A stretch of 64,000 nucleotides of DNA, from positions 64,930-128,929 of the forward strand of contig JACROF010000003.1 in the NCBI GenBank assembly GCA_016214555.1, read 5' to 3'. The notes beneath the pieces are model-generated. The model saw nothing but the letters and a program-made list of their open reading frames with translations, was not told the origin of the DNA and did no database searches. Every line of letters begins with the position of its first letter. Position 1 is the stretch's first letter. Made by a program: the position numbers and the translations under genes. Source of the stretch: Candidatus Levyibacteriota bacterium (GTDB lineage Bacteria; Patescibacteriota; Microgenomatia; Levybacterales; UBA12049). Below, piece after piece: positions 1,156-24,970 of this stretch.

Positions 1156-3129
1156 ATGAATTTATTACATCAAATACAAACCCTCAATAGTCAAGCATTT
1201 ACTTTAAAGCAAAATGGCCAGATTGACAAAGCTGAGCAAACTCTAAAAATAGCTCTAAGACTTGCCCCAAACCACCCACTTACTAATTACAACCTAGGAA
1301 CATTATTAAAAAATCAAGGAAAACCCGACGAGGCGCTCGCTTTGCTAAAAAAAGCAGCAGATTTCACTCACGACTCGACTGCTCCACTGAACAATCTAGC
1401 ACTATGCCTTAACCAACTAGGACTAGTAGATGAGGCAATTCAAACCTATAAAAGAGCGCTCAAAATCGAACCTACCAACCCGCTTCTAAACTACAACATC
1501 GCCAACCTCTATCTTGAAAACAATATGCAGCAAAAGGCTATAGTTTTTTACAAAAAATCCATAGAATATGAACCCAAAAATCCTCTAGCTTATGCTAATT
1601 TAGGTATTTCCTACTTTCAATTATCTGATAAAAAGGCGATATTACCTTTTAAAAAAGCCATAGAACTTTCACCACAAACAACTCAATACTACTACACTCT
1701 AGCCTATATTTATGAAAAAGCTGGGGATACTAAAAATGCAATCAAATACTACGAAAAAACAATACAAATGGAGCCTAATTTTGAATATGCCTTGGCGCAT
1801 CTTTTTACCCAGAAAAGAAAAATCTGTGATTGGACTGGGCTTGAAAGTATTAGTCAACTCCTTGATCAAACCCACAAAGAATCTCCTTGGTCATCGATAA
1901 TGCGAACTGAAGACTTGAAATCTAATTTGATTGCAGCAAAAGGATACAGTCAGGAACTCGAGGGTAAAATTTCTAAAAATTTATTTTCATTTAAAAAAGG
2001 GGGTGGGAGACAAAAAATCCGCTTGGGCTATATCTCTGCCCACTTTGGCAACCACCCCATTACTTTTACTACCGCTTCAGTTATCAAAAATCATGATAGA
2101 TCAAAGTTTGAAGTTTTTGTTTACTCTTACGGCCCAAATGATAAAAGTACATATAGAAAAAACATAGAAAACGCCGCTTCTCAATTTATTGATGTAACAA
2201 AACTAACAGATAAAGAGGCTGCTAAGAAAATCTTTGATGACCAGATTGATATTTTGGTAGACCTTTCAGGCTATACGCAGGGTAATAGAGCTGAAATTTT
2301 AGCTATGAGACCCTCACCTCTGCAAATAACATGGGCGGGACTTTGCGCAACAACAGGCTCTGATTTTATTGATTATTTTATTGCTGATTCAGTCATAGTT
2401 CCAAAAAAAGATGCGCAATTTTATTCAGAAAAAATGATTTATCTTCCCCCCTGCTTTTGCCCTATTCAGGACATAATTCCCCTATCTAGAAAAAAACTTA
2501 CTAAAAAGCACTTTGGATTACCTGAAAATACATTCATTTTTGCCAGCTTTAATCAAATGTATAAGATCGATAAAACAATCTGGGAGACTTGGATGGAAGT
2601 TTTAAAAAAAGTACCACAAAGCGTTCTCTGGGTATTTATCCAAAATAATGAAGGCAAAAACAACCTTAAGCGCCACGCTCAAAATCAAGGGATCAACCCA
2701 AATCGTATTATCTTCACCAACCAGTTATCTCTTGAAGAATTTTACTCAAGTATCTCACTTGCCGATTTGGCGCTTGACACGCTCGTTTATGGTGGAGGCA
2801 CTACCTCCTATCATAGTCTCCTAAAAAAAGTCCCGCTTATCACCCTCAGAGGCAAGCATCCAGCATCGCTTTTCTCAACAAGCATTCTCAAAGAGTTAGG
2901 GCTTGAAGAATTGAGTACAAAAAATATTCAAGAATATAAAAATATTGCAATTAGTCTTGCTACAGATAATGACAAATTAATGATGATAAAACATCATCTC
3001 ACGCCTGAGAAATTCGACAAAACAATTCTCAATATTGGACAAAAAGTCTCCCACCTAGAAGATGCATATCAACAAATTTGGCACAATTATCTTCTAGGCA
3101 ATAAACCAAAACAAGTTGAGGTTAGTTAG
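1156..3129 (+). CDS. TPR-containing GT41 protein glycosyltransferase (O-GlcNAc transferase/SPINDLY-like)
   Basis: About 6 N-terminal TPRs. Catalytic-region motifs LGYISAHFGNHP, DILVDLSGYT, RPSPLQ, TTG..FIDY, FASFNQ.YKI and DLALDT..YGGGTT. Confidence 0.9.
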   Translation: MNLLHQIQTLNSQAFTLKQNGQIDKAEQTLKIALRLAPNHPLTNYNLGTLLKNQGKPDEALALLKKAADFTHDSTAPLNNLALCLNQLGLVDEAIQTYKRALKIEPTNPLLNYNIANLYLENNMQQKAIVFYKKSIEYEPKNPLAYANLGISYFQLSDKKAILPFKKAIELSPQTTQYYYTLAYIYEKAGDTKNAIKYYEKTIQMEPNFEYALAHLFTQKRKICDWTGLESISQLLDQTHKESPWSSIMRTEDLKSNLIAAKGYSQELEGKISKNLFSFKKGGGRQKIRLGYISAHFGNHPITFTTASVIKNHDRSKFEVFVYSYGPNDKSTYRKNIENAASQFIDVTKLTDKEAAKKIFDDQIDILVDLSGYTQGNRAEILAMRPSPLQITWAGLCATTGSDFIDYFIADSVIVPKKDAQFYSEKMIYLPPCFCPIQDIIPLSRKKLTKKHFGLPENTFIFASFNQMYKIDKTIWETWMEVLKKVPQSVLWVFIQNNEGKNNLKRHAQNQGINPNRIIFTNQLSLEEFYSSISLADLALDTLVYGGGTTSYHSLLKKVPLITLRGKHPASLFSTSILKELGLEELSTKNIQEYKNIAISLATDNDKLMMIKHHLTPEKFDKTILNIGQKVSHLEDAYQQIWHNYLLGNKPKQVEVS

Positions 3130-3131
3130 TA

Positions 3132-3641
3132 TCACTTGAGATAATCAGCTCTCAAAAACCCCATAATGAGTGAGTCAACGTACCGATTGCCTTTCTTCAC
3201 ATGATGTCGCCTGACACCTTCTTTTTTAAAACCAAGTTTTTTATAAAGCGATATAGCTGGCGTATTGAAATCCAAAACTTCAAGTGAGACTTTATTGAAT
3301 TTTTTCTCTCTTAATAAAAAGTCAATAAAGAGCTTGAGAGCCTCAAATGCAAATCCCTTTTTTCTATACTTAGGTTCAATATCCGCACCCACATACACAT
3401 TTTTATTTTGTAAGTCCCATGCAGATGTACGGATGTAGCCTACTTTGCTACCCTCAAACTCAATAACGAAATACTGAGGATTTGTCGTTTTAAACCATCT
3501 TTTGGCATCACTCAAGCTAAATTTTCGACTATCATGAAGATATGCTACGCATTTATTTCGAAGGCTTACAAAAAAATCAAGATCTGTGGATTTCATAGGT
3601 CGAATGATGATTCTTTCTGATCGTAAATTAATTTCAAACAT
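3132..3641 (-). CDS. GNAT acetyltransferase (RimJ/RimL/PseH-like)
   Basis: YRKKGFA acetyl-CoA motif and N.PAI.LYKKLGFKKEG; directly downstream of the DegT gene. Confidence 0.85.
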   Translation of the reverse strand: MFEINLRSERIIIRPMKSTDLDFFVSLRNKCVAYLHDSRKFSLSDAKRWFKTTNPQYFVIEFEGSKVGYIRTSAWDLQNKNVYVGADIEPKYRKKGFAFEALKLFIDFLLREKKFNKVSLEVLDFNTPAISLYKKLGFKKEGVRRHHVKKGNRYVDSLIMGFLRADYLK

Positions 3642-3647
3642 TGTTAT

Positions 3648-4769
3648 CTAGAACCCTTCAAGAATAGACGCAATCTCTTTTGCTTTTTTGATACTCACCC
3701 ACTGTCCAATTGGAATGGCAATATTCTCCTTGTCAAATGTATCAACTCCGGGAAGTTTTCCTGTTGTAAGCTTGCGAAATACAGGATAAATATCATTTCG
3801 CCTGTGCGCCTCTACCGCCTCAACGCCAATTTTTTTTAGGGCTTTAACAAGTTTTGATCTATTTTCAGAGCTTCCGCACAGAACGATATATAACCAATAG
3901 TTCGGCTTGGAGTCAGGAAGAATTGTTTGAGGTTTTAAAGACTTGCTTTTTGATAGTGCTTTGTCATAAATTGCTGCTATTTTTCTTCTATAAGCAATAC
4001 GGCTAAGTAGGTATGGGATTTGGCCTAATCCAATTGAAGCTGCAATATCAGTCATCTGCATTTTGTACCCTACTTCAGAAATAGGATACTCCCAAAAAGT
4101 CTCTCCCCAGACCCTTTGTTCCCTATCAATCCCATACCATCGTAATGTTTTTGCGCGTTTTACATCTTTCTTTCTTTTACAAACCAAAACTCCTCCGTCA
4201 CCTGTTGTTATTATCTTTGTAGCTTGAAAACTAAAAGCCACAAAATCTGAATGAGTACCAATTGGTTTACCTCCGTATTCAGATCCTAATGCCTGAGCTG
4301 CATCTTCAATAACTGGAATACCAAACTTCTTAGCAATCCTGTTTATTTTGTCAATTTCTGAAGAAACACCTCCAAAGTCTACCACCATTATTGCCTTAGT
4401 ATGTTTGGTAATTTTTCGCTCAATATCTTCAGGATCAATATTACCCGATTCAGGATCAACATCTGCCCAGATTGGAATCCCGCCCTCAAGAACAATCGCG
4501 GCATTGGTAGCAAAACAAGTCATCGGAGTAGTGATAACTTCCCCTTCTTTAACTCCAGCTAGTCGCAGAGCAAGCTGCAAAGCTGAAGTTCCGGAGTTTA
4601 GGGCAACAACATTTGGGTTTTCAATAACCTTTCCGATATCTTCTTCGAACTCCTTAACCCTTGGCCCATCTCCCCCAATCCACCCAGATCTTAAAGTCTT
4701 ATTTACTAATGCGATAGACTCTTTAGTCACACTTACTTTGTATGAAGATGTATTCTTAATCCTTTTCAT
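3648..4769 (-). CDS. DegT/DnrJ/EryC1/StrS PLP-dependent sugar aminotransferase
   Basis: NSGTSAL, IEDAAQALG and FSFQATKIITTGDGG motifs; ATG at 4769 preferred. Confidence 0.92.
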   Translation of the reverse strand: MKRIKNTSSYKVSVTKESIALVNKTLRSGWIGGDGPRVKEFEEDIGKVIENPNVVALNSGTSALQLALRLAGVKEGEVITTPMTCFATNAAIVLEGGIPIWADVDPESGNIDPEDIERKITKHTKAIMVVDFGGVSSEIDKINRIAKKFGIPVIEDAAQALGSEYGGKPIGTHSDFVAFSFQATKIITTGDGGVLVCKRKKDVKRAKTLRWYGIDREQRVWGETFWEYPISEVGYKMQMTDIAASIGLGQIPYLLSRIAYRRKIAAIYDKALSKSKSLKPQTILPDSKPNYWLYIVLCGSSENRSKLVKALKKIGVEAVEAHRRNDIYPVFRKLTTGKLPGVDTFDKENIAIPIGQWVSIKKAKEIASILEGF

Positions 4770-4847
4770 GGCCAAATAATACCATAATGAAACAAAAATA
4801 CAATTTGAAGATTGAAAACAAAGGCTAATACATAGTAAATTAGATAC

Positions 4848-7800
4848 ATGCCAGCAGTCCGCGACTATACTTTTGCTTATGAAGCCTCCACAGCAGATGC
4901 AGGAATTACAATTCCCATGTGCGGATATGCAACAAATGATCTTTTAATAGCATTTGCCATCTCAGACACAGGTACTCCAGCATGGGTTCCCTTGAGTGAT
5001 GTTTCAGGGGCAGCTTCTGAAGATGCTGGAACTCCCGTAAGCGATTTAACCGATGCTGTATCAGCTACTGCAAATGATATGGAACTAACCCCAGCAGTAG
5101 GAAATGCAGGAACCGGGGACGGGTATTATTTTGGTAGCACACAACCATTCAACATGGTTAGAGTTAACGTGGGCACTGCTGCATCTGCTTCTTGGACTAT
5201 TACTTGGAAATATTGGAATGGGTCATGGACCACAATTCCCGGCTACACTGATGGAACTACAAATTGGACAGCAGGGACCGGAAATCGTGACGTTACCTTT
5301 AATCCTCCCAACGACTGGGCTACCACGACGGTAGTGTCACAAAATATTTACTGGGTAAAAGCTGAGATAACTGCATTTACTTCCCTCACTACAAGACCTC
5401 TAGGCACTCAAGCCTGGGTACGAAACTGGACACAGCTTTTTGGGCGCAATAATACACTTGCTTCTATCTGTTATTTCAAAATCGCCTCATCATCAACCTC
5501 AGAAGAAGACCTCTTGATGTATACCGCAACAAATGAAACGTATAACGGAAGTATCACTTCAATCCGAGATATTAATACCAAAACCCCATTCGGGGTGGCA
5601 AGCATAGCAAGCTATTCAGAGACGAACGCTGATAGTTATGCAAGTCTTGGAAACGGAACAATAACTGGAGTTGCACAATCATTTACCAATACTGCAGTAG
5701 TCAATACTATTGCAAAAGTCAGATTTTATCTTAAAAAAAACGGGACACCAACTGGTAATGCTACGGCAAAACTCTATACCCATTCAGGAACATTAGGCAC
5801 ATCATCTGTTCCAACCGGCACTGCGCTTGCGGTTTCAGATGCCTTTGATGTGTCAACGTTGACTACCACTGCAACCTTATCTGATTTTGTATTCAGTAAT
5901 TATACAAACTGGTATTCTATGGTAGCATCAACTAATTACGTAGTTTCAATTGAATATTCAGGAGGTGACTCATCAAATTATGTCCAGGTTGGCTACGATA
6001 ACAGCTCTCCCTCCCATGGTGGAAACTATTCTGAAAACACGGGGTCATGGGCTGCAAATTCAGGCAGGGATGTAGCATTTTATCTCCAAACTTTCGCAGC
6101 AAATGACAGCACCCAAGCCGCATCTGCCAGGTTTGCAATGCCTCAGATTACAACTGACGCAAATAATGCACTTGTACTTTACTTTAACTCCACCTCAGGA
6201 ACTGCAGGAACCCCCTCTATTATTGAAGGGCCCGTATTTAGTCTTATCGCAGGAGACGGAACTGCGGAGTCTCATGCAGTGGGATGGGGATTTAAAGCCA
6301 CGGCGGGATCAACACCTAACAATGTTTATGCTACAGCTGCTGTTACAGGGGCAGGCGTCAAAGCTGTTATCCAAGTCTCCCCTCCCACAACAGGAGCTAC
6401 AATAATCCCTGCCTATACTCCACAGGATGACTGCACCTACATAGATCCTATTGCTGGTGTAAGTGCATATAATTCTAATACTGCCTTGGCTGCTACTGCA
6501 GATACTAACTTTGGTACGTCTCTTGGAGGCTTTACTGCTAATGATGCAACCGTAGCTGCTATGGCTGATACCGGAATTAACTCATTCCACTCACTTGGAG
6601 GAATGACAAATGCTGCGACAGCAAAAACAATTAGCGGGGCAGAATTGGTTCTCGCAGCTGCAAATAGATTTAATATGGGGACTAAAAATCTGCTTTGCCA
6701 TGTGTATGCCGCCACCCCTGCACATATGCAAAGATTCTCAGCCGTATCTTCAGAGCGTGGTTTTTGGATGGGAGTCCGATCAAATACGGGGTCTGGAGGA
6801 GCAACAACAGGATATAAAATCTGGCAGGTACATGGAGTTGATGCTCCATGGGATTTTGGGTTCCATGTACCAATCATTGTAAACTCAGGCGCAGGAAATA
6901 CTAAGGCAACATCGGGAACTCTAGATACAGCAGTTATTGCATCTGTTGGTTTTTGGAATAGCTCTATAGGAGCTCTTACTAATCAACAAGGAGTAGGATC
7001 ATTATGGCTTATGGACAAAACGGTTGTTTGTGGAGGAAATAGTGCAGAACCTCTCAATGTGCCAGGTATTGTCAAAACAATTGCTCGCGGCAAAGAACGT
7101 CAATCAGGAATTCTTCAAGGAGCAAAGCAGATGCTTTTGCTTCAAGATATTCAGCTTGGTGATGGCGGAACAGACCCAACATATCTTGATCTAGATTCGA
7201 CAGCGACTGAATTTCCAAGACAATATAATGCTGCGACAGCCCAGGTTAATTATAATTCAACGGATAACATCATAGGAATTACCTATTATCCCGGAGCTTC
7301 GGATACTATCAAGCATCGCAACTCAATCATATCAAGCAGTAGCAGATACAAATGGGGGTTACATGCTTCCGCATCCACTTCAGCATCGTATGATTTTTCA
7401 GGTCTTATCGTAATCGGCGCTGGAATAATCACCCTTAATAAAGCAATTACCATAACCGAACTCACCATTAACGACTACTCAACTCTTGATGTCTCAGGAC
7501 TTACCTTTAATTTAGGAACTATATTAAATATGCCTGCTACCAGCGACTCTATAACTACCTCAAGTAGTACGGTTATTTCAAATAGCTCAATAACCACAAC
7601 TACCGTTACGGCTGGTAATAGATGGGCCTCTGTTGCAACAGCTGATCTAGATATGTTCTCAGGCAATACCTTTACCGGTTCGACAACGAGCGGACATGCT
7701 ATCAGGCTCACATCAACGGGAACAGTTAGCTTTTCAGGGAATACATTTACTTCTTATGGCCCGGCAGCAAGAAGCTTTGATGCGTCAACGGACGTCAATA

Positions 7801-8603
7801 CAACAACAAATATCATTACTCTTGACGCAGCCCATGGGTACAACAACGGCGAACCAGCGTACTTTCAGGATCAAGGAGGAACCGCCCCAACAGGTCTTAC
7901 CGATGGCAATCTTTACTATGTAAGAAGTGAATCCTCAACCACCATCACTCTTTATGACACATCAGCACACGCCATAGCTGGAGGCGCCACAGGACAAGCA
8001 GACATCACTGCCACAGGCTCTGGAACACAATATATTTATAGTGCGGCAGCAGCCATCTACAATAATTCTGGTGGGGCTGTAACTATCAATGTCACCAACG
8101 GAGGAAGTACACCAAGTATTAGGAATTCAGACGGATCATCAACTACAGTCAATAATTCTGTCAATCTCACAATCACCGTCATTGATGCGAGTACAAATCC
8201 TGTGCCAACAGCCCAGACCGCCATCTATCGAACAAGTGACAACGTTGAGCTTATGAATGAAGATACAGAAACAGTAACTGCTGGCTCATTTGTTGTCGGG
8301 GTAAAATACACCATCGTCAGCGTTGGCTCAACAGACTTTACAGCAATTGGAGCCGCTTCAAATACAGTTGGCGTTGCTTTCACGGCAACTGGTGTAGGAT
8401 CGGGAACTGGCACTGCCTCAAATGGTATCGCAACAGCCACGTTTAGTTATATTACTGATACGGCAGTATATGTCAGAGTCAGAAAATCTTCCACAGGTAC
8501 TACAAAATATACACCAGTTTCAACAACAGGAACTATCACGAGCACAGGATATTCTCTAACAGTTACTCTAACAAGTGACACGATAGCCGATCCGACCTTG
8601 TGA
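4848..8603 (+). CDS. 1251-aa Ser/Thr/Gly-rich modular fibre-like protein (phage-virion-like modules, no signal peptide); paralog of 10547-13114
   Basis: Long ORF. Shares N-terminus (MPA.RD) and core (PSIIEGPV, PTYLDL..TA.EFP, ITYY.GASDTIKHR, HGY..G...Y.QDQGG) with the 855-aa protein, plus three extra inserted modules. Confidence 0.8.
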   Translation: MPAVRDYTFAYEASTADAGITIPMCGYATNDLLIAFAISDTGTPAWVPLSDVSGAASEDAGTPVSDLTDAVSATANDMELTPAVGNAGTGDGYYFGSTQPFNMVRVNVGTAASASWTITWKYWNGSWTTIPGYTDGTTNWTAGTGNRDVTFNPPNDWATTTVVSQNIYWVKAEITAFTSLTTRPLGTQAWVRNWTQLFGRNNTLASICYFKIASSSTSEEDLLMYTATNETYNGSITSIRDINTKTPFGVASIASYSETNADSYASLGNGTITGVAQSFTNTAVVNTIAKVRFYLKKNGTPTGNATAKLYTHSGTLGTSSVPTGTALAVSDAFDVSTLTTTATLSDFVFSNYTNWYSMVASTNYVVSIEYSGGDSSNYVQVGYDNSSPSHGGNYSENTGSWAANSGRDVAFYLQTFAANDSTQAASARFAMPQITTDANNALVLYFNSTSGTAGTPSIIEGPVFSLIAGDGTAESHAVGWGFKATAGSTPNNVYATAAVTGAGVKAVIQVSPPTTGATIIPAYTPQDDCTYIDPIAGVSAYNSNTALAATADTNFGTSLGGFTANDATVAAMADTGINSFHSLGGMTNAATAKTISGAELVLAAANRFNMGTKNLLCHVYAATPAHMQRFSAVSSERGFWMGVRSNTGSGGATTGYKIWQVHGVDAPWDFGFHVPIIVNSGAGNTKATSGTLDTAVIASVGFWNSSIGALTNQQGVGSLWLMDKTVVCGGNSAEPLNVPGIVKTIARGKERQSGILQGAKQMLLLQDIQLGDGGTDPTYLDLDSTATEFPRQYNAATAQVNYNSTDNIIGITYYPGASDTIKHRNSIISSSSRYKWGLHASASTSASYDFSGLIVIGAGIITLNKAITITELTINDYSTLDVSGLTFNLGTILNMPATSDSITTSSSTVISNSSITTTTVTAGNRWASVATADLDMFSGNTFTGSTTSGHAIRLTSTGTVSFSGNTFTSYGPAARSFDASTDVNTTTNIITLDAAHGYNNGEPAYFQDQGGTAPTGLTDGNLYYVRSESSTTITLYDTSAHAIAGGATGQADITATGSGTQYIYSAAAAIYNNSGGAVTINVTNGGSTPSIRNSDGSSTTVNNSVNLTITVIDASTNPVPTAQTAIYRTSDNVELMNEDTETVTAGSFVVGVKYTIVSVGSTDFTAIGAASNTVGVAFTATGVGSGTGTASNGIATATFSYITDTAVYVRVRKSSTGTTKYTPVSTTGTITSTGYSLTVTLTSDTIADPTL

Positions 8604-10135
8604 TTTTAAGTCTTAATCATGCAAAAATACTCCAAAAAGAAAGGTTGACGACAGCAGCAAGGATTGCTGCAACAGAACACATACAAATTATTGAAGGAGC
8701 AAGACAACTTCTTGTCTCGCTCTCAACATCCCCATTTATACTCTACCCTGACGAAAACTGCTCGCTATATTTACAACAAGTACTAAATAAATATCAACGC
8801 TACAATAATATTGCACTCGCAAATCTTCATGGTGATGCGATATGCAATGCTGCAGCACTTCCAGAACAAAAAATTGTCAATGTGTCCGATCGTTATTTTT
8901 TTAAAGAGGTGATAAAAACAAATGAATTTACCGTTGGAGAATATTCTTTAAGCAAGACAACCAAACAACCCGTAATATCACTTGGCTATCCGGTCCATGA
9001 CTACCAAGGACGTCTTATTGGTATTATCTATTCATCGCTTGATCTAGATTGGCTAAAAAATCTCGTATCAAGCCTGTCGCTTGGGGACAATTCCGTGCTA
9101 TTAATAACAGATAAAAATGGTAAAATTCTTGCCTCAAATCAAAACTCATTTCAAGCAGGCTCTCTCCTCTCTGACAAAGGAATAGTTCTTAACCTAAAGT
9201 CAGACTCAGGATTAATTGAACCACAAGATACTAAGAACTATTTCTTTGCTTACAATCAAATCGGTGGTTCGAGTTCAAACCCTTTTGCTTTCGTAGGGCT
9301 CCCAAAAGCTACAGTTTATCAAAAACCTAACGAGGACTTTGCTAAATCTCTCCTCTTCTCCGGATTGATAGCACTCCTCTCTTTGACAGGAGGATGGTAC
9401 ATAGGCAACTCGCTCATAACCAAACTTGTTATGGCTGTACAAAAAGTAGACCAACTTAGGCAGGATTTTGTCTCTTTAGTATCGCATCAACTTCGGACAC
9501 CACTAACCGCAATAAAGTATTTTTGTGAAATCCTCCTTTCAGAATCCTCAGGCAAACTTAATAAAAAACAGAAAGAATTTATCACTGACACACTTACTTC
9601 AGCTTCACGGTTGAGCCAGCTGGTAGGAACTCTTCTTGATATCGGAAGACTTGAAGAGGGAAAAATGCTTCTTAATTTTAAGGAAGTATCAGTTGAAAAA
9701 TTGCTAGAAAACAGCATGAAAGATATCGCTCCCTTTATCAAAAAAGAGGGCCTCAAGCTGTCGCGGGTTAAAAAAAGAGGCGTACCTAGCAACATTTTTG
9801 TCGATGAAAAACTAATGATACAGGCCGTGTCAAATCTCCTCTCAAATGCAGTAAAATACAGCGACCCAAAATCACTTATTGAAATTATTCTCTCAAAATC
9901 AAACAATGGCATACTTTTTGAGATCAAAAACAGAGGGATAGTCATACTTCCTGAAGATAAGTCCCATATCTTTTCAAAATTTTACCGATCAACTATGGCA
10001 AGAAAAAAAGCAGACGAAGGGTCTGGATTAGGACTTTATCTGACAAAACTTATTATAGAATCACATGGGGGCAAAATCTGGTTTGAAAGCGATAAAAATA
10101 GTACGTCATTTTTCTTTACTCTAGAGATTAAATAA
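8600..10135 (+). CDS. Sensor histidine kinase with Cache-like sensor domain (first TM helix apparently missing)
   Basis: VSDRYFF Cache signature, one TM, H-box SHQLRTP, N-box NLLSNAVKY, G-box GSGLGL. Confidence 0.9.
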   Translation: MILSLNHAKILQKERLTTAARIAATEHIQIIEGARQLLVSLSTSPFILYPDENCSLYLQQVLNKYQRYNNIALANLHGDAICNAAALPEQKIVNVSDRYFFKEVIKTNEFTVGEYSLSKTTKQPVISLGYPVHDYQGRLIGIIYSSLDLDWLKNLVSSLSLGDNSVLLITDKNGKILASNQNSFQAGSLLSDKGIVLNLKSDSGLIEPQDTKNYFFAYNQIGGSSSNPFAFVGLPKATVYQKPNEDFAKSLLFSGLIALLSLTGGWYIGNSLITKLVMAVQKVDQLRQDFVSLVSHQLRTPLTAIKYFCEILLSESSGKLNKKQKEFITDTLTSASRLSQLVGTLLDIGRLEEGKMLLNFKEVSVEKLLENSMKDIAPFIKKEGLKLSRVKKRGVPSNIFVDEKLMIQAVSNLLSNAVKYSDPKSLIEIILSKSNNGILFEIKNRGIVILPEDKSHIFSKFYRSTMARKKADEGSGLGLYLTKLIIESHGGKIWFESDKNSTSFFFTLEIK

Positions 10136-10155
10136 TGGTAGAATGAAATAAAATC

Positions 10156-10530
10156 ATGCCTAAATCATATAAAGTCCTTATCGTTGAAGACGATAAATTT
10201 ATACTAAAAGCAATTCGCTACAAATTTGAAGAAGCAAAATTTAACGTTAAAACTTCACAAACTGCCGAAGGAGGGTTAACATTGCTTGAAAAATGGACTC
10301 CTAATGCAATTATATTAGATATTTTGCTTCCGGGGATTGATGGATATGCTTTTTTACGAACAGTCAGAAACCACCCCAAATGGAGCACCATCCCTGTTAT
10401 CGTTGCCTCAAATATCAATGAGCCTCCAGATATAGAACCAGGAGAAAATACCGGATACAAAGAGTATATTGTAAAATCTGATCTTGATCTCAATAGTCTT
10501 GTTGAAAAAGTCAAAACACTCGCCAGATAA
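10156..10530 (+). CDS. Single-domain response regulator (CheY-like)
   Basis: LIVEDD, IILDILLPGIDG, ASN and YIVK receiver motifs. Confidence 0.9.
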   Translation: MPKSYKVLIVEDDKFILKAIRYKFEEAKFNVKTSQTAEGGLTLLEKWTPNAIILDILLPGIDGYAFLRTVRNHPKWSTIPVIVASNINEPPDIEPGENTGYKEYIVKSDLDLNSLVEKVKTLAR

Positions 10531-10546
10531 GATATTCAGATTTCAC

Positions 10547-16246: not shown

Positions 16247-16252
16247 TAACGT

Positions 16253-16657
16253 ATGAGATTTGAAATTTCACGATCACTAAACGGTAACAAAGTTACATAC
16301 ATCGCCAGAGATACCAATGGCATTGTAAGACTACGCGCTGACAGTGTTGAGGCACTGCAAGAAGCCATCAAGCAATACAATGATGCGCTACTTGAGCAAT
16401 CTCATGCCAAAAAAACCAAAACGAAAATCGACCTATCAGACAATGAACAGCCACAGACCACAAACGAATCTGACGAAAGCATAGTGACTTCAGTTACCAC
16501 CGTGTCTGAATCGACTCAACCTGAGACTGAGGAAACATCAGACACCTCTGCTGCGCCTGAAGAAAAGAAAGAATTCCTAACAAATGATGCCAAAAAGCAA
16601 ACAGATGAGAGAAGACGAAAAACAAGCTCAAAAAGCTTTTGGGACAAACTAAAATAA
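16253..16657 (+). CDS. Hypothetical protein with small N-terminal domain and acidic disordered tail
   Basis: Starts 6 bp after the previous stop and is co-oriented. Confidence 0.7.
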   Translation: MRFEISRSLNGNKVTYIARDTNGIVRLRADSVEALQEAIKQYNDALLEQSHAKKTKTKIDLSDNEQPQTTNESDESIVTSVTTVSESTQPETEETSDTSAAPEEKKEFLTNDAKKQTDERRRKTSSKSFWDKLK

Positions 16658-16659
16658 TT

Positions 16660-16768: not shown

Positions 16769-16775
16769 TTAAGGT

Positions 16776-17093
16776 ATGGCAGGCATAACTACAACACCAA
16801 TCACCAGAGAAGAAGCACTTCAGTATGACGCAGAAGCACTTCGGGCTAATTGTGAAAAACGCAAAAATAATATCAAGATCTTTGAGGAGGCTATCGCAAA
16901 AGAACAAGAGTCAATCAAGCAAGACGAGTACATGATCTCTGCTATAGATCCCAATCACCCAGACGTCCAAACGCTTAAGGGTAATATAGAAAAAATAAAG
17001 CTCAACATCAAAACTTTTCAGGACGCCATTACTGAAGAAAACTCCCAGATTGATCGAAATAATCAAATGATCACGATGATCGAAGCCAATTAA
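16776..17093 (+). CDS. Small coiled-coil protein with internal duplication
   Basis: K.NIK.FEEAI..E...I repeats as K.NIK.FQDAI..E...I. Confidence 0.75.
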   Translation: MAGITTTPITREEALQYDAEALRANCEKRKNNIKIFEEAIAKEQESIKQDEYMISAIDPNHPDVQTLKGNIEKIKLNIKTFQDAITEENSQIDRNNQMITMIEAN

Positions 17094-17224
17094 AATTTTC
17101 TAATTTCTAAGTACTCTAATTAACCTAAATAAAGTCAAAAGCTGCAATTGACGAAATGAGAATTTAATAATTGGGATTTTTTTAGATCAATTAGAAATTA
17201 GAATAATTAGGTCAATTTTAAGCT

Positions 17225-18529
17225 ATGGCACTAACATTTAATAAAAATACCAAAATTATCACTGTTGGATCACCTCAGACAACCCTGACTATACAGGATC
17301 TTCATGATGATATTAGGCTGTTTGAGCATCTCCCTCAAAATTTGGAGGAGGCGCAAATTGCTAATGCCTCAGGCAAACAAAGCCTTGGTGGTGGTGTTAC
17401 GGTAGGCATCACCCTTGAGCTAATCAACAACTGGAGACTCGCTTTTGAGGCTCGACCAGGACCTGACACTATTCTTTGCAGCGTCACGGGAGGTAATCTA
17501 GTGGCGACAAATGACTATGACAACAACCCAATCTACCCTACTGCCTATACTCAGGTCACAATCGCCCAATCATCATCAGCAACGGTGATCGAAGCGCCAT
17601 CTGATGACCATATGCTTTACCTTTTGGCCTCTCTTCGTGGCAAACAACGAGGTGTTGGAAGTTATTATTACTGGAATCCAACCTCAGGCAGCGACAGCAA
17701 TGATGGCACAACCCCTGGCAAAGCTGTACTGACTTTTGCACAAGCACAATCTCTTGCCTCAGCTGGAACTGGAGACACAATTTTTTGCATAGCCTCCAAC
17801 TCATCTGGAACAACTACTGTTACAGAAACACTTAATATCACAAAAGCCAATCTCAAAATCATGGGCCCAGGCTACACATTCCAACTAGTACCAACCGCAA
17901 CGACATCTCCAACCATCACCATCGCAGCTGCCAACGTTGAAGTGTCAGGACTTTATGTATCAACTGCTGGCACAGGATCACAAGACGCTATTTCAGTTGG
18001 CGCCAACCGTGCTTTTATTGAAGATTGCTGGATAGCAAGCGTTCGTGGTAACGGCATCAATCTCGCAAGCACTGCAAGGACACAGATCAATAGTTGTGTT
18101 ATTGAACACTGCGGCCTATCAGGTACAGGAGATGGTATCAAACTAGGTAACACCACTACGGAAGCACTCATTTCTAAATCAATTGTCTTTGACAATGTTA
18201 ATGGTGTCTCACTTTCTGGTACTGGACTTGCTGACAATATCTTTGAAAACAATCTCATCTATCAAAACACTGGATATGGCATCACTGTTGGAGCAAATGT
18301 TCTTCGAACTCACGTACGCTCTGGGCACACCTTTAATAAAAACACAGCTGGTAGCACTCAAGATCTTGGAACTGATACCTTTATAGAGACACAGGCAGGC
18401 GGAGCATCTGCTTCAGAAATCGCGGATGCAGTCTGGGATGAGGTCATATCAGGTCATATCACCAGTGGCTCTGCAGGAAGAACACTCAAAGACGCAAAGA
18501 CAAGAGCAACGCTCGCCTCTCTGCAATAA
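17225..18529 (+). CDS. 434-aa protein: phage-like N-terminal domain, right-handed parallel beta-helix, C-terminal IADAVW motif
   Basis: GSDSNDGTTP..A..T...A motif, (G/D)GI repeats typical of NosD/pectin-lyase-like beta-helices, and EIADAVWDE...H...GSAG at the C-terminus. Confidence 0.8.
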   Translation: MALTFNKNTKIITVGSPQTTLTIQDLHDDIRLFEHLPQNLEEAQIANASGKQSLGGGVTVGITLELINNWRLAFEARPGPDTILCSVTGGNLVATNDYDNNPIYPTAYTQVTIAQSSSATVIEAPSDDHMLYLLASLRGKQRGVGSYYYWNPTSGSDSNDGTTPGKAVLTFAQAQSLASAGTGDTIFCIASNSSGTTTVTETLNITKANLKIMGPGYTFQLVPTATTSPTITIAAANVEVSGLYVSTAGTGSQDAISVGANRAFIEDCWIASVRGNGINLASTARTQINSCVIEHCGLSGTGDGIKLGNTTTEALISKSIVFDNVNGVSLSGTGLADNIFENNLIYQNTGYGITVGANVLRTHVRSGHTFNKNTAGSTQDLGTDTFIETQAGGASASEIADAVWDEVISGHITSGSAGRTLKDAKTRATLASLQ

Positions 18530-18530
18530 G

Positions 18531-18597
18531 ATTGAATTATGAAATAAGAAGCAAGAATCATGCGAGCATAATTCGTTATTCAAGATTCATAATTCAT
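18531..18597. repeat. Inverted 7-nt repeat arrays between convergent genes
   Basis: tgaatta-tgaaata-agaagca-agaatca followed by taattcg-ttattca-agattca-taattca. Confidence 0.65.
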
Positions 18598-19040
18598 TTT
18601 TTTAGAAGTTTCTCTACTCTCACATGCAACTCAATAGCCTCTTCAGTCTTACCGGTAAAAAATAAAACAGAACCTAAATTCCTCAGTGCATCTATGTACT
18701 CTGGCCTTAACTCAATTGCTTTTCTATAGTACTTGATGGCATTACTAAATTCACCCAATTCTGTATAAACATTACCCATATTATTATACGCGGCAGCAAA
18801 ATTAGGCTTTAGCGAAAGTGCGACAGAAAATGCATCCAAGGCCTCTTTGTATTGCTTAAGACACTTCATAGCCACTCCCATATTGATATACACTTTAGGG
18901 TCTTTTGTTCCAATTTTTATAACTTCTTTATAATTTGATATAGATGAAAGATATTCTTTTTTCCTTAAAAAATGGTTTGCAGCGGTGCGATACTGCCTTA
19001 AAAGCTCAGCTTGATTCATAAGGATTATTATAAATTCCAT
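18594..19040 (-). CDS. TPR protein
   Basis: YINMGVA, AYNNMGNVY and ALRNLGSVL repeats. Confidence 0.85.
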   Translation of the reverse strand: MEFIIILMNQAELLRQYRTAANHFLRKKEYLSSISNYKEVIKIGTKDPKVYINMGVAMKCLKQYKEALDAFSVALSLKPNFAAAYNNMGNVYTELGEFSNAIKYYRKAIELRPEYIDALRNLGSVLFFTGKTEEAIELHVRVEKLLKK

Positions 19041-19176
19041 TATAAAAAAATGACAAGTCTAAAAATATTACTGTGTCGAACTATTCTCTCCAAATACTAC
19101 TTGCTTTTTGCAAAAAAGATAGGATATGATGGGTTAAGACGTCTTTTGGACGAAGTAAAGGGGGTGAATAAGACAT

Positions 19177-19338
19177 ATGTTTAATAATATTGGTTGGCCA
19201 GAATTTGCAATTGTCGGTTTTATCCTTCTTCTTTTATTTGGAAGCAAAAAAATCGTTGAGCTTGCACGAGGACTCGGTGAATCTACGAAAGAATTAAAGC
19301 GTGCAAAAAATGAATTTTCTAAAGCGAAGGAAGAGTAA
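19177..19338 (+). CDS. tatA: Twin-arginine translocase TatA/E subunit (copy 1, 53 aa)
   Basis: Not in track. MFNNIGWPEFAIVGFILLLLFGSKKIVELARGLGESTKELKRAK..., with strong SD AAGGGGGTGA. Confidence 0.9.
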   Translation: MFNNIGWPEFAIVGFILLLLFGSKKIVELARGLGESTKELKRAKNEFSKAKEE

Positions 19339-19350
19339 TATTATTCTCGC

Positions 19351-19385
19351 CAGCCATAGAGACCACACTCTCCTCTATGGCTTCT
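19351..19385 (+). terminator. Stem-loop after tatA copy 1
   Basis: agccatagag...ctctatggct inverted repeat. Confidence 0.45.
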
Positions 19386-19431
19386 TCGTCTTTATATAAT
19401 TCTGCAAATCTAGTGATAAGGAGGTGGATCT

Positions 19432-19569
19432 ATGTTACAAAATATCGGAACAGTAGAAATTGTTATCGTTGCGTTACTGATAGTCTTGTTCTTTGGCGGC
19501 AGGAAAATTCCTGAGTTTATTCGTGGCATTGCTGAAGCAATTCGTGAATTCAAAAAAAGCAGTAAATAA
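19432..19569 (+). CDS. tatA: TatA/E subunit (copy 2, 45 aa)
   Basis: Not in track. MLQNIGTVEIVIVALLIVLFFGGRKIPEFIRGIAEAIREFKKSSK, with SD AAGGAGGT. Confidence 0.9.
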   Translation: MLQNIGTVEIVIVALLIVLFFGGRKIPEFIRGIAEAIREFKKSSK

Positions 19570-19581
19570 CGATAAAAATCC

Positions 19582-20364
19582 ATGGACGCATTAGAAGGTC
19601 TCAATTTGGAGTCTGCATCAGTCAGATATATGCCCTTTCTTATCGAGATTCGAAAGAGGTTACTTTTTTTGTCTGCAGTTTTTTTAGTTACTTGTGCTCT
19701 TGGATTTATTTATTACCAAAAAATTATTCTTTTTATCCTCAACCTATACGATCTTCAAAGCATCAACGTCACATTTACCTCGCCTTTTCAATTTGTTAAC
19801 CTCGCCATCAGCTCAGGAATGATAGTTGGATTTGCCCTCACACTTCCTTTGATCCTCCATCAAGTCCTCAGCTTTTTAAGGCCAGCCCTCCATAAAGGGG
19901 AGTACAACCTTTTGATCCGCTTTCTCCCTCTGAGCCTTATCCTTTTTGTGATAGGATTCTCATTTGGAAGCTGGATAACCAAACTTATTATTGAGGTGTA
20001 CTCCCGACAGACGACACAGCTTGAGATTCAAAATTTGTGGGATATTAATAGCTTTCTTTCACAAATTCTGTATACATCACTGCTTCTTGGCATTGTCTTT
20101 CAATTCCCTCTTGTCATCACGCTTCTTGTTCGATTTGGTGTCATTTCTCATAAAGTCATGTCAAAGCAGCGCAAGATCGCCTATGCTATTATTTTGATTG
20201 TAGTAATCCTTCTTCCCCCAACTGATTTACTGTCAATGGTGCTTATTTTTCTTCCGCTTGCAATCGTTTATGAACTTACTTTATCATTGAATAAAAGAGC
20301 CAAAGTACAGACTTGGCATAGTTTGAAAACACAAGTAAGTCATTCGAAAGGGGGTGAAAAGTAA
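19582..20364 (+). CDS. tatC: Twin-arginine translocase TatC
   Basis: LIEIRKRL, FLRPAL..GE, FQFP, PPTD..SM and P...YE motifs; about 6 TM helices. Confidence 0.92.
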   Translation: MDALEGLNLESASVRYMPFLIEIRKRLLFLSAVFLVTCALGFIYYQKIILFILNLYDLQSINVTFTSPFQFVNLAISSGMIVGFALTLPLILHQVLSFLRPALHKGEYNLLIRFLPLSLILFVIGFSFGSWITKLIIEVYSRQTTQLEIQNLWDINSFLSQILYTSLLLGIVFQFPLVITLLVRFGVISHKVMSKQRKIAYAIILIVVILLPPTDLLSMVLIFLPLAIVYELTLSLNKRAKVQTWHSLKTQVSHSKGGEK

Positions 20365-20522
20365 TGTTTGGTAATATAGGTACACCTGAAATTATTATTG
20401 TTGCAGTTGTTCTTCTCATTCTATTTGGAGGCAAAAAACTTCCTGAGCTAGCACGAGGACTCGGCGATGCGATCAGAGAATTTAGACGATCAGCTGGAGA
20501 TGACGACGGAAAAAAGAAGTAA
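20364..20522 (+). CDS. tatA: TatA/E subunit (copy 3, 52 aa)
   Basis: Not in track. Overlaps the tatC stop (TAATG). MFGNIGTPEIIIVAVVLLILFGGKKLPELARGLGDAIREFRRS... Confidence 0.92.
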   Translation: MFGNIGTPEIIIVAVVLLILFGGKKLPELARGLGDAIREFRRSAGDDDGKKK

Positions 20523-20604
20523 TTTTTTCTGTTGTGAATTTATTTTTTAGCAGGGGGATTAATAGATAACAATCCAAAACTATTATCCCCCTCTTATTCT
20601 CACT

Positions 20605-20997
20605 ATGTTACTCGAACCAATTATTTCTCTACCGCTTGCGCTTATTGCTCCGTTTGTTCTCTGGCCAATTGAGTTATTACTTCCTTATCCATTTATTCTT
20701 GAAGAGATAGCAAAAACCCTGATCATCATCCCTCTCCTCTCAAGTCACAAAAACAAAGTATTGCTCTATGGGGTTGGAATAGGGATTCTCTTTACACTCT
20801 CTGAAACGATTCTATATGCTCTCAATACAGTCTATGGATCTTCCCACTACCTAGCAACACGACTCCTTGCAACGGGTGCGCTTCACGTCACGACAACACT
20901 AATTATTCTTTCATCAGGATTTTATAAAAAAAGATACCTACTTGCAGGCCTAATGGGAGCAATCATTGTGCATTATCTCTACAATAGTTTTATATAA
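20605..20997 (+). CDS. Small PrsW-family intramembrane glutamic protease
   Basis: EEIAK, G..FTLSE, LH and HYLYN motifs in a 4-5 TM protein. Confidence 0.7.
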   Translation: MLLEPIISLPLALIAPFVLWPIELLLPYPFILEEIAKTLIIIPLLSSHKNKVLLYGVGIGILFTLSETILYALNTVYGSSHYLATRLLATGALHVTTTLIILSSGFYKKRYLLAGLMGAIIVHYLYNSFI

Positions 20998-21009
20998 AGA
21001 AGCTACCTG

Positions 21010-23955
21010 CTACTCAGTTGAGGAAGGGTCATTCTCTTTTACGTACTCTGCTGATACCCATCCAGTTCCATCTTTAAATTCTACCTCATACCATCCTTCT
21101 TTTTTCCCAACAACAGGAAGGATGTCGTGGGGCATAACTCTTGCGATCTCCGACCCTCCAGGGCCACTACGAACGCGTAAAAAGCCAACGGAGGTCTCCA
21201 ACACCTCTACAGATACCTGCTCTAGACTTTCGTCTTCTGGTGACTGAAGGACACCATCTGGAACCCAACCTATAACCTCTGCGGATGCCTCTTCAAGATC
21301 AATAAGCTTAACCTGAATCCAATCGCCTTTTTTTGCAACAATTGACCCTTTGACAGGCTCATAGATGGTATACACGGGAACACTTCCCTCGGATGGCTCC
21401 ATCATAAGTGCCACTGTGTCTGTCTCTGATCCAACAATTGTTATCGCATCATCGCCAGAGCCTACTTGCTCATCTTTTTCTGAAAGAACCTGAGCTATCT
21501 GAGGCGACTTATGGGTAGTTGCAGTACTATCTCCTTTGCGGGCGGTAATGCTAAATACGATGGCTGATGAAATGCCTGCCGTCAAAAGACTACTGACCAC
21601 AACAGCTACTCCCCACCTAACTTGTCTTCTTTTATGGAAAGGCAAAACGCTTTTGATGTCTTCTTTCAAATTTTGCTTTAAAACATCTTGCTGTTTTTTT
21701 CCAGATTGTTTTTGTTTGGCATCTTGCACGCGAAGAATCCGCATATAAAGAACCAAGAATACAAATCCTGTAACCATGATGATAATAAGTCCCCAAACAG
21801 CGATCGCCTGTGCGCCTCCCACAAATCCAACAAGAGACCCAGATGAACTTACCTGCGTCACAAGCTCTTTTAATTTCTCCATTTTTACCTTGACACCTTC
21901 AAGCTCAATTTTTGCCTCACGATATGCGCGTATTCTCCCCTCAGGAGTCACTGCAGCTTTTTGTTTTTGAATAATTTTATCAAGAGCGACATTAATATCG
22001 CTTGTCAGCGTGACGCCTTGTGCAAAAAATGAGGTGTTCTTTAATGGCTCTGAAAGCTCCTCAGCCTGAGTCTTTAGTGACTCAATTTCATCACTTGCAA
22101 TCGAAAATATACTCTCATCAACTGTTATAGATATTGTCTTAGTTTCCTCTGGATCAAGGCTAAATTCTGCGCTTACAAAGTATTGATCCTTCTCAGAGTC
22201 ATATTCAACAGACAACCCAGCATCAACCTCCAAAATACTCTCTTTCGTCACCTCAGGCGGAAGATAATACTTCAAAGGAACTGTTTGAGAGACAAGTGAG
22301 GATGGATTGGTCACAAGTGACTTAAATACAATACTTCCCTCCTCAAGCCACATATTCACCAAAGGCTTCTTTGTACCACTTGCTAACAATTTCTTATTAG
22401 ATGCTATAACACCTTTCATTCCAAGCACTTTGTTCTTTAGCTGCTTGTCAGTCTCAAGCCCTTTGGGGTCAATCGCAAGCGCGATCATCGCTTGAGGAAT
22501 AGTGTTTCTTTTACTAATGCTCTCATAGAGTCCAGAGGCACTTTGTCTAATGTATGGTTTTTTGTAGGCTTTCCAGTTTGCCAAGAGCCTATCAGCTTTA
22601 GTGTTATCTTTGTCAAAAGAGCTAGAAAGATTCGTAAGATACGCAATCGTCCCCATAAAAGTCTTTGCGGTTTGCTGATCTTCTGTGCTCCCAATATCAT
22701 CAGAGATGCCACTCAAAATTGTTTTTAATTTAACAACATCGACATAACCAGACTGAGATTTGCCATATGTACGTAGGTCGCTTCTCATACTCTCAAATCT
22801 CATTTTTAACGCCAATGATTGATCATATAACGCATCAACTTCCTGCATATCCCACAAATCATGAAGCTGTTTGAGACTGCCTATAAAGGATTTTTTAGAG
22901 GATGCTCCCTCATTGCCAATTGTTTTTGCTATATCATCAAATGCAGCAAGTACTTCTTTTGATGAAGCTTTTGTCCACTGCTTACTCAAGAGGGTAAGTT
23001 TTTTATCAAGCGATTGAGATGAGCTAAGAAGACTTGACGACAATATCTTGGTCTGCTGAAGCTTAACTCCCAAATCGACTGAGTCTTCCTCAAGATAATT
23101 TTGAATAATCGGTTTGTTAACAAGCTTTTCTAAAAGAAGCCTGCTGTCAAGAGTTCTCTTTTCAACGTTTTCTAACGTCTGAGTGTTAAGAGTTGTCGAG
23201 CTTGACACGGTCGCAACGATGGTACTTACCTCAGTTTTGACCTTTGAGACATCGCTCTTTACTGAGTCAACATCTTCTTTTGTCGCAATTGAACCTGATG
23301 TCAACCCTGAGCCTGTAAGTGTTCTCGTCGCATACCCCCAGACATCAGATGCAATTGAGCTAGCGCCTGTAATAGTACGAGTTGAATAATCCCATATATC
23401 TGCAACAAGCGTTCCAAAACTGGTTAACGTTCTCCCAGAATACCCCCAAACAGCTGAAGCAATATCACTTGTTGAAGGAACAATATTTTGTAAAGCCTGA
23501 CCAAATGTCCCAGATGTAGTATATGAGGATCGATTTGCGTTCCATACCGCACTCGCAACATCTGAGCCACTAAGCGAGGCAGATGAGGTCGCGACTACTT
23601 CAAAAGATTTATCAAGACACATATACTCTCCGCTTGCAGTACAACAAATACTTGATCGATAAAGCCCTGCAGCCCCAGTTGCAACAATGTCATAGGAGTA
23701 CCAACCGTCCGCTGAGGAAGCCATAGGCTGTGAGTTAACAAAAACTGTTCCGTTAGGATACTTACTCGTTATGCTACAGGAAGCATTTGATATCGGAAGA
23801 TAGGTATCATCATACAAAAATTCTCCTACTTCACAAGTCTGACCTATCTCACAACTTTGTGGCCCAGCAGGAATAGCATAGGCATGCCCGACCGTTAAAA
23901 AAAACAGAAGTAAAAAAACGGGTAATATTTTTTTATATGACTGCAGTCTTTTCAT
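21010..23955 (-). CDS. 981-aa secreted, membrane-anchored protein: (A/D)VW repeats, coiled coil, two TMs, C-terminal SH3b-like domains
   Basis: Signal peptide ending GHAYA. Repeats DVASAVW, DIASAVWGYSGRTLT and DVWGYATRTLT. TMs near aa 720 and 790. LRVRSGPG...GWYEV...GWVSAEYV at the C-terminus. Confidence 0.8.
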   Translation of the reverse strand: MKRLQSYKKILPVFLLLFFLTVGHAYAIPAGPQSCEIGQTCEVGEFLYDDTYLPISNASCSITSKYPNGTVFVNSQPMASSADGWYSYDIVATGAAGLYRSSICCTASGEYMCLDKSFEVVATSSASLSGSDVASAVWNANRSSYTTSGTFGQALQNIVPSTSDIASAVWGYSGRTLTSFGTLVADIWDYSTRTITGASSIASDVWGYATRTLTGSGLTSGSIATKEDVDSVKSDVSKVKTEVSTIVATVSSSTTLNTQTLENVEKRTLDSRLLLEKLVNKPIIQNYLEEDSVDLGVKLQQTKILSSSLLSSSQSLDKKLTLLSKQWTKASSKEVLAAFDDIAKTIGNEGASSKKSFIGSLKQLHDLWDMQEVDALYDQSLALKMRFESMRSDLRTYGKSQSGYVDVVKLKTILSGISDDIGSTEDQQTAKTFMGTIAYLTNLSSSFDKDNTKADRLLANWKAYKKPYIRQSASGLYESISKRNTIPQAMIALAIDPKGLETDKQLKNKVLGMKGVIASNKKLLASGTKKPLVNMWLEEGSIVFKSLVTNPSSLVSQTVPLKYYLPPEVTKESILEVDAGLSVEYDSEKDQYFVSAEFSLDPEETKTISITVDESIFSIASDEIESLKTQAEELSEPLKNTSFFAQGVTLTSDINVALDKIIQKQKAAVTPEGRIRAYREAKIELEGVKVKMEKLKELVTQVSSSGSLVGFVGGAQAIAVWGLIIIMVTGFVFLVLYMRILRVQDAKQKQSGKKQQDVLKQNLKEDIKSVLPFHKRRQVRWGVAVVVSSLLTAGISSAIVFSITARKGDSTATTHKSPQIAQVLSEKDEQVGSGDDAITIVGSETDTVALMMEPSEGSVPVYTIYEPVKGSIVAKKGDWIQVKLIDLEEASAEVIGWVPDGVLQSPEDESLEQVSVEVLETSVGFLRVRSGPGGSEIARVMPHDILPVVGKKEGWYEVEFKDGTGWVSAEYVKENDPSSTE

Positions 23956-24963: not shown

Positions 24964-24970
24964 AAAAACT

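Follow-up and report, generated by a model that had tools for sequence, protein, structure and literature searches.

What does a twin-arginine translocation (Tat) system export in bacteria of the candidate phyla radiation (CPR), where a minority of genomes keep one? The available part of PMC9166423 notes the presence of Tat in CPR without explanation. The question is raised by a 64,000-nucleotide stretch of DNA (the window, G000:C4:64930-128929 in our numbering of genome and contig) from a Microgenomates (CPR) genome of 1.05 Mb that is 96% complete. In it, four fibre genes, F1251, F855, F959 and F434, stand beside tatA and tatC genes, a PrsW-like protease gene and the gene of a membrane protein, M981. 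Here a fibre module derived from viruses and a rare TatA/TatC translocase are combined in one bacterial gene cassette. We propose, with moderate confidence and on the strength of sequence comparison, that a small adaptor with a twin-arginine (RR) signal, encoded outside the window, ferries the pre-folded fibres through Tat and that M981 anchors them; the fibres would thus likely be carried out piggy-back and displayed on the cell surface.

Linkage of the fibre genes to a rare translocase

The argument starts from linkage. Among 251 Microgenomatia genomes (the class sample for all counts of tatC, F959, adaptor, GT41 and M981), TatC was found above cut-off in 23 and the F959 family in nine; a phylum sample of 351 Patescibacteria genomes has TatC in 21. 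In all eight genomes with a strong F959 match, belonging to six families, tatC lies on the same contig within ~10 kb (Fisher 1e-8), which bears out the co-occurrence of fibres, tat and PrsW across Microgenomates that an earlier reading of the window, made from the sequence only, had put forward for checking. The ninth has a weak match near a contig start in a genome that is 87% complete. Our cellular comparison set of 41 GTDB genome loci with the F959 family comprises 29 with tatC, eight that break off no more than 4.1 kb from the fibre and four from outside CPR, three of which hold phage head genes. In many Microgenomates families the fibre genes thus stand in tight linkage with TatAC, with the gene of the PrsW-like protease and with that of the anchor.

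By their surroundings, the other tatC copies (n=23) sort into three types. Type A is the arrangement found here: F959, F434, the PrsW-like gene and M981 recur in seven other genomes, with a partial set in G195, G201 and G263. The tatC locus of G036 stops at a contig edge, and G258 holds a remnant, tatA and a short anchor without tatC. Loci carry two to seven tatA copies, with four to seven in the type-A loci L177, L178, L179 and L182. All 28 PrsW-like homologs listed have EExxK; the motifs of the PrsW family are EExxK, FxxxE and a His, and the gene of this locus fits that family.

TatC residues H12, E15, F94, Y100 and E103 bind the signal, with F94, E103 and position 15 binding its two arginines, according to the accessible part of PMC13323110. 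The TatC of this locus retains E15, F94 and E103 and has F for H12 and H for Y100; all 37 type-A rows have F94, E103 and either E or D at position 15, and F94 is kept in every TatC row. The idea that TatC lost RR recognition was rejected for type A.

The open reading frames (ORFs) of the locus are all intact. Their coordinates and families agree with the sequence-only reading, which had placed GT41, DegT and GNAT on one side of the fibres and a TPR protein, tatA-tatA-tatC-tatA, a PrsW-like protease and a membrane/SH3b protein on the other; it had left out the histidine kinase, the receiver, the 134-aa and 105-aa ORFs and the adaptor gene. The features are as follows.

1156..3129, + strand: TPR-GT41 glycosyltransferase (PF13844, E 1.9e-89)
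3132..3641, - strand: GNAT acetyltransferase; not a conserved part, near fibres in 1 of 41 genome loci
3648..4775, - strand: DegT aminotransferase; not a conserved part, near fibres in 1 of 41 genome loci
4848..8603, + strand: fibre F1251, 1251 aa, signal-less; F855 paralog with a CBM-like insert in common with F959 and the shared C-terminal domain
8600..10135, + strand: dCache histidine kinase, between F1251 and F855; found in several loci
10156..10530, + strand: receiver-only response regulator, between F1251 and F855
10547..13114, + strand: fibre F855, 855 aa from ATG, signal-less; shared C-terminal domain
13367..16246, + strand: fibre F959, 959 aa; beta-sandwich/barrel domains in a chain, including a CBM-like one; conserved core of the set, also found in viruses
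16253..16657, + strand: 134-aa ORF, mostly CPR-specific (15 genome loci, 1 viral)
16776..17093, + strand: 105-aa charged ORF, likely coiled coil; follows F959 in CPR and viruses (19 genome loci, 31 viral)
17225..18529, + strand: fibre F434, 434 aa; virus-shared N-domain, tailspike-like beta-helix, AVW repeat, basic C-terminal helix
18594..19040, - strand: TPR protein, a variable accessory
19177..19338, + strand: tatA (PF02416)
19432..19569, + strand: tatA (PF02416)
19582..20364, + strand: tatC (PF00902), with the E15, F94 and E103 equivalents
20364..20522, + strand: tatA (PF02416)
20605..20997, + strand: minimal PrsW-like intramembrane metalloprotease (PF13367, 26 bits against a cut-off of 23.5)
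21010..23955, - strand: M981 membrane/SH3b protein, 981 aa; Sec-type signal, N-terminal domain, AVW repeats, transmembrane (TM) helices, SH3b
G000:C4:50779-51492 (L218:4780-5493), outside the window, ~14 kb left of base 1: RR adaptor, 237 aa

Viral kinship of the fibres

The four fibre proteins had been described as co-oriented, rich in S, T, G and N and devoid of Sec or RR signals, and so we find them. All are on the + strand with 39-43% S+T+G+N, none appears in a genome-wide RR-plus-hydrophobic scan (39 rows, 1121 genes), and hydropathy gives none a signal-like N-terminus; the hydrophobic segment of F855 at 20-38 includes acidic residues. Pfam and NCBIfam give no match for F1251, F855 or F959, and F434 matches a beta-helix family. 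F855 is a paralog of F1251 (43% across 830 aa), F1251 and F959 have a ~105-aa insert in common, and all three terminate in one common C-terminal domain; homology between the N-domains of F959 and F434 is not established (HH probability 6).

The kin of these proteins are viral. Of 8000 candidates that were scored, 590 are relatives of F959, and our viral comparison set consists of 80 distinct IMG/VR loci with the family, usually with F855-like and F434-like genes and often with the 105-aa gene; tat, PrsW and M981 occur in none of the 80. Among 44 neighbour proteins from 12 loci (eight viral contigs and four non-CPR genome loci), matches to a terminase, portal, protease or head protein turned up in nine of the loci. 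Many F959 relatives stand under the title 'uncultured Gammaproteobacteria' (L027-L032, L041, L042 and others), with F959 segments 72-94% identical and a Microgenomates-type gene order; because that order is the same as in this locus, the titles would be those of mislabelled CPR records. The nearest homolog under a CPR-named record is from Ca. Levyibacteriota (86%).

Fold comparison of fibre monomer models with phage tails, suggested earlier as a check, points the same way. The F959 model (pLDDT 86) is a string of beta domains. Residues 128-322 match a portal-tail chain of phage LME-1 with Z 18.4 (rmsd 1.8, 137 aligned), baseplate chains of contractile injection systems (CIS) with Z ~10 and carbohydrate-binding modules (CBM) of family CBM32 with Z 7-8; residues 718-955 form a transthyretin-like domain with an inserted domain resembling phage tail tips (Z 6-9). 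At whole length, F959 gives weak multi-domain matches in Foldseek and viral leads, all below 0.8, in the ESM Atlas. The F434 model (pLDDT 86) has a beta-helix equally near lyases and tailspikes (Z 25-26). These searches scarcely cover the N-terminal domains of F959 and F434. The predicted beta-helix and CBM folds, of receptor-binding kind, and the place in virion modules are those of tailspikes and fibres. F959 and F434 found no tblastn match in 50,697 GenBank phages; therefore no cultured phage anchors the annotation. Judged from sequence and gene order, the fibres are a viral morphogenesis module, and the phage virion-fibre origin first suggested for them is supported.

How did this module come to lie in a bacterial genome? 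In an F959 tree of 100 cluster rows (FastTree, midpoint root for drawing only), cellular copies fall in several clades amid viral ones, with 12 changes between virus and cell labels, at least eight of them forced by well-supported branches. Since the cellular copies are scattered among viral clades, exchange has been repeated; the tree gives no direction. This exchange, the homology of the parts to a virion module and their patchy distribution would also suit a defence against phages, in which fibres built of virion parts act as decoys or interference factors, either in the cytoplasm or after release, and Tat and adaptor have a membrane-tethered part in that defence in place of adhesion. We consider this quite improbable: the variable domains have CBM-like and beta-helix receptor-binding folds, and the likely anchor is a Sec-exported protein with SH3b domains.

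A decayed prophage with head genes nearby had been named as the finding that would overturn the proposal, and no such genes were found. When 52 further proteins, encoded in the window or in the 20 kb to its left, were compared with PHROG families, head, portal, terminase and sheath had no match, in agreement with the earlier statement that capsid, portal, terminase and sheath genes are not recognisable in the window; tube and baseplate families had none among the local proteins, 62 of which were compared in total. The structural or mobile matches are one 'tail protein' at 45879-46766 and an excisionase-like helix-turn-helix (HTH) protein at 24643. PF04860 and PF03237, the two Pfam families with which the whole genome was searched for portal and terminase, have no match in it. 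By these tests the locus is neither a prophage nor a tailocin nor a CIS. A co-mobile island or decayed provirus, with fibres and tat adjacent by shared descent alone, would account for the presence of the set in 2 of 8 relatives within the genus, for the HTH, PIN, Fic-like and Y1-transposase-like genes close by and for remnants such as G258. We regard it as very improbable, as all ORFs are intact, portal, terminase and capsid were not found in the searches run, distinct fibre clades and three fibre families each adjoin Tat, and the RR signal sits on the viral-type domain in cellular copies only.

The twin-arginine adaptor and a proposed route of export

If the fibres have no signal, an RR-bearing partner is needed for the proposed route. 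The adaptor was found by a weak match of a type-B microprotein profile (see below) in the genome itself, inside C4:50779-51492. It consists of two N-terminal helices, the motif D-R-R-x-F-L-K, a hydrophobic helix, an AxA-type site and a C-terminal domain; simple-window hydropathy places the helices at 4-22, 26-44 and 118-136, with RR at 116-117. RR thus follows two TM helices, an even number, and a single helix comes directly after it. Its C-terminal domain contains no cofactor-binding domain and has no Pfam or NCBIfam match above cut-off, one weak sub-threshold Pfam model apart. A protein homologous to this domain is encoded close to the fibre module in 18 viral loci, and the three nearest structures in the Atlas belong to clusters labelled as half or wholly viral (TM 0.66-0.84). 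None of the 17 viral homologs listed has the RR motif or signal.

The distribution of the adaptor follows Tat. The family, with 734 relatives among 1269 candidates, occurs in 25 of the 251 genomes, namely in 18 of 23 with tatC, including all eight F959 genomes, versus 7 of 228 without (Fisher 1e-17). All 12 genomes with the RR form have tatC, and a KR form is present in six tatC genomes; of 120 scored homologs, 109 have RR and 10 have KR, and the last is an RR variant that departs from the pattern. The adaptor gene shares the tatC contig, at a distance of 5-33 kb, in 8 of 9 type-A genomes. Of 313 confirmed metagenome adaptor loci 80 were kept; among the 29 with at least 11 kb, a fibre or tat gene is in view in 17. 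No adaptor is found in five tatC genomes, namely in four type-B-only genomes and in G201; in four of the five an RR/RK microprotein (NF038009-like) is present instead, and in three of these a signal-less fibre of another kind is in view beside tatC. An RR microprotein adjoining tat in type-A loci was sought and not found. Around the adaptor gene (G000:C4:49610-52008, L218:3611-6009) lie small membrane proteins, one with TM and SH3b parts (266 aa) and others of 119 and 157 aa, which are found in several type-A genomes; they are probably further parts of the system.

Where would the fibres dock? In all 30 Tat-linked F434s an AVW-type repeat is followed, at the very end, by the same conserved basic helix. 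The viral adaptor domain accompanies short-tailed F434 homologs (10 of 15 vs 2 of 44, a test that overstates the link, as several of the viruses are related), and F434 may thus be the protein that the RR adaptor binds. In M981, a Sec-type N-terminus is accompanied by AVW repeats, by another two TM helices and by a match to SH3b, and residues 127-158 are homologous to the F434 tail (HH probability 97.6). A whole-length M981 search matches 186 of the 251 genomes, mainly via the SH3b part; the N-terminal part occurs in 12, ten with tatC and two in which it adjoins tatA or PrsW-like sequence. M981 is likely the surface anchor.

The sequence-only reading had already inferred a domesticated, glycosylated adhesion appendage that leaves the cell by a dedicated Tat or other non-classical route, and comparison of genomes supports its core. 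We propose the following route. Folding and assembly of the signal-less F1251, F855, F959 and F434 likely take place in the cytoplasm, and there the GT41 enzyme may glycosylate these fibres. They would then bind the virus-derived C-terminal domain of the adaptor, most plausibly via the C-terminal helix of F434. Adaptor helices 1 and 2 would be inserted by Sec, and TatC would receive the complex through the internal RR signal. Once across, the complex would be freed by cleavage at the AxA site, and Sec-exported M981 likely retains it at the surface through AVW repeats like that of F434. The role is likely glycan-binding adhesion to a host or surface. What is observed are the genes and their linkage, the viral homologies, the conserved motifs and the predicted folds; the steps from assembly to adhesion, glycosylation among them, are inferred. 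ATP synthase alpha and beta genes are present in the genome, so that an energised membrane is plausible.

Type B appears to be a parallel, independent system. In L160-L164 and L198-L214, from Microgenomatia and other Patescibacteria, tatA-tatC is accompanied by an RR/RK microprotein of 56-75 aa, which matches NCBIfam NF038009 below cut-off. The class has five such loci, with microproteins of 57-72 aa, four of the loci with a visible fibre; their TatCs form a separate clade and all five are without E103. The fibres are of a different family, signal-less, with a common N-terminal head. The microprotein has a Tyr/Gly motif at its end, and nearby Sec-signal proteins start with a similar motif; this suggests a parallel docking logic, in which the two would bind. 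Of 18 further TatC loci outside the class, nine have the RR microprotein, seven a type-B fibre and one is type-A-like. In type C (L168-L175, L181, L335-L338; seven tatC loci in the class), giant S/P/T-rich proteins with a common phage-like C-terminal domain are encoded directly upstream of tatA-tatA-tatC, and the adaptor is mostly the KR form.

From these types we draw a wider proposal, tentatively and at slightly less than an even chance: Patescibacteria would have made Tat a dedicated fibre-secretion system at least twice independently, by grafting an RR signal on a viral docking partner, exporting assembled fibres piggy-back and docking them on a Sec-exported anchor with the same viral docking repeat, with fibres swapped with viruses as receptor-binding tips.

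Several observations weigh against export of the fibres by adaptor and Tat. The KR-form adaptor is also found in seven genomes without detected tatC or tatA, and in this genome adaptor and tatC are 33 kb apart. G195 and G201 have Tat and anchor without an F959 match, G201 also without an adaptor match. At least 4 of the 18 tatC loci outside the class have neither fibre nor RR microprotein within ~7 kb. Three tat-less genomes retain a type-C fibre and KR adaptor, in two of them close together with no intervening tat; therefore that type is not always tied to Tat, and either Tat was recently lost in this branch or it is dispensable there. The co-occurrence statistics ignore kinship, and the majority of the sampled genomes are incomplete. 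N-x-S/T sequons are mildly enriched in F855 and F959 alone, two of the four fibres. The cargoes are very large, 959-1251 aa here and 2000-3000 aa in relatives, beyond any Tat cargo known to us.

Two further alternatives were weighed. First, Tat may export the adaptor alone, perhaps with other RR proteins, and the fibres leave otherwise, by sister-cell lysis or in vesicles, to be captured outside by adaptor and M981. The very large cargo and the related fibre type without detected Tat in three genomes would suit this, yet the ~95-aa cofactor-free adaptor domain would have no evident need for Tat unless it carried a folded partner, TatA is expanded to two to seven copies, and no alternative exporter was recognised among gene clusters common to at least four loci. 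We consider capture from outside unlikely. Second, Tat may be a general housekeeping exporter of scattered RR proteins, unrelated to fibres. Indeed, two other proteins of the genome, at C9:23993-24913 and C1:188593-189273, have a textbook N-terminal RR, and ordinary RR substrates had been named beforehand as a possible refutation. The objection is weak: TIGR01409, matched in 14 of 23 tatC genomes, is also matched in 86 of 228 without tatC (Fisher 0.04), a far weaker link than that of the adaptor, and RR-like N-termini are thus common in Microgenomatia lacking TatC. We find this second alternative extremely doubtful.

Neighbouring genes of the cassette are given here for completeness. Histidine kinases and receiver-only regulators are encoded at 8600-10530 of the window and at G000:C4:55408-59890, with similar pairs near fibres in several relatives. 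The 105-aa ORF product is possibly an assembly chaperone. After the anchor gene stands an excisionase-like HTH and PIN pair (24643-25396), also present in a few relatives, and a Fic-like/HTH gene (L057:18475-19419 and homologs) lies near the anchor gene in 13 loci. At 59103-64000 starts a 2385-aa ORF (G000:C4:124032-131189), rich in S, T, G and N and without an N-terminal hydrophobic segment, which extends beyond the window; immediately ahead of it, at 58001-59000, GC falls to 28%. A tRNA-Arg(CCT) gene is at 36875-36947 on the minus strand.

Precedents and a possible role in host attachment

Virion structural parts are reused by cells in type VI secretion systems, in extracellular CIS (eCIS) such as the Photorhabdus virulence cassettes (PVC), in tailocins and in gene transfer agents. 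One F959 domain resembles eCIS baseplate domains (Z ~10); in contrast to those machines, the fibre module alone is kept here, with Tat and an anchor, and sheath, tube, baseplate core, capsid and lysis genes were not found. HMW1 and other adhesins are glycosylated by cytoplasmic GT41 enzymes such as HMW1C. The GT41 of this locus, with a TPR array and a bipartite GT41 domain, likewise adjoins large S/T/N-rich adhesin-like genes; unlike HMW1, these have no signal peptide or two-partner transporter, and the enzyme is of the TPR (OGT/SPINDLY-like) type, in half of the systems. GT41 occurs in 5 of the 251 genomes, four of them fibre-Tat genomes with GT41 adjoining the fibres; it is a linked but optional companion, present in 4 of 8 fibre genomes. 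In L183 (G171:C27), five tandem GT41-TPR genes and a sixth TPR gene are directly upstream of the fibre. DegT and GNAT are probably passengers, because they lie near fibres in 1 of 41 loci. Of the sugar-enzyme flank first assigned to the system, GT41 stays and these two drop out.

Signal-less protomers are known to be carried by Tat in the PaoABC heterotrimer (PMC4273604) and MdoD dimers (PMC13323110), as the accessible parts of both papers describe. The present case resembles such hitchhiking in that an RR-bearing subunit, here the adaptor, is encoded with signal-less partners for the TatA/TatC route. It differs in that the cargoes known from those parts are enzymes, while here a small dedicated carrier, a virus-type fibre cargo and tat genes within the cargo cassette are proposed. 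Actinobacterial Rieske proteins, Sco3746, a polyferredoxin and YkuE-like proteins are precedents for an internal RR that is preceded by Sec helices in even number (PMC5449189). From what is accessible of that paper, the adaptor is like these dual Sec/Tat proteins in its even TM number, cytoplasmic loop, RR, one hydrophobic helix and following basic residues, and unlike them in a C-terminal domain of viral structural-module type without a cofactor motif and in a conserved AxA-type site after the helix. The main text of PMC5449189 does not mention Microgenomates; its supplementary TATFind list could hold the adaptor. NCBIfam NF038009 (TatB_1, 'twin-arginine translocation system-associated protein') resembles the type-B microproteins beside tatC in Patescibacteria, but no NCBIfam model is matched by the adaptor described here, and the family name makes no fibre link.

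Full-text searches, with subscription journals and supplements outside their scope, found no literature linking CPR Tat to fibres, and Patescibacteria and CPR are absent from the main text of a 2026 Tat review (PMC13673990). A fibre-Tat-adaptor system was not found described and is new in this sense; already known is the type-B microprotein, which NCBIfam names Tat-associated.

The gene set addresses an open question, namely how CPR bacteria attach to and select their hosts, and it offers a translocase, an RR adaptor, fibres, an anchor, a protease and an optional glycosyltransferase. The accessible part of PMC9166423 gives no reason why a minority of CPR keep Tat; the route proposed here predicts a substrate for it. 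If it is true, Tat hitchhiking would extend from enzymes to large structural fibres, and viruses would be a renewable source of adhesin tips; on the wider, more tentative proposal, these bacteria would possess a new kind of bacterial attachment appendage.

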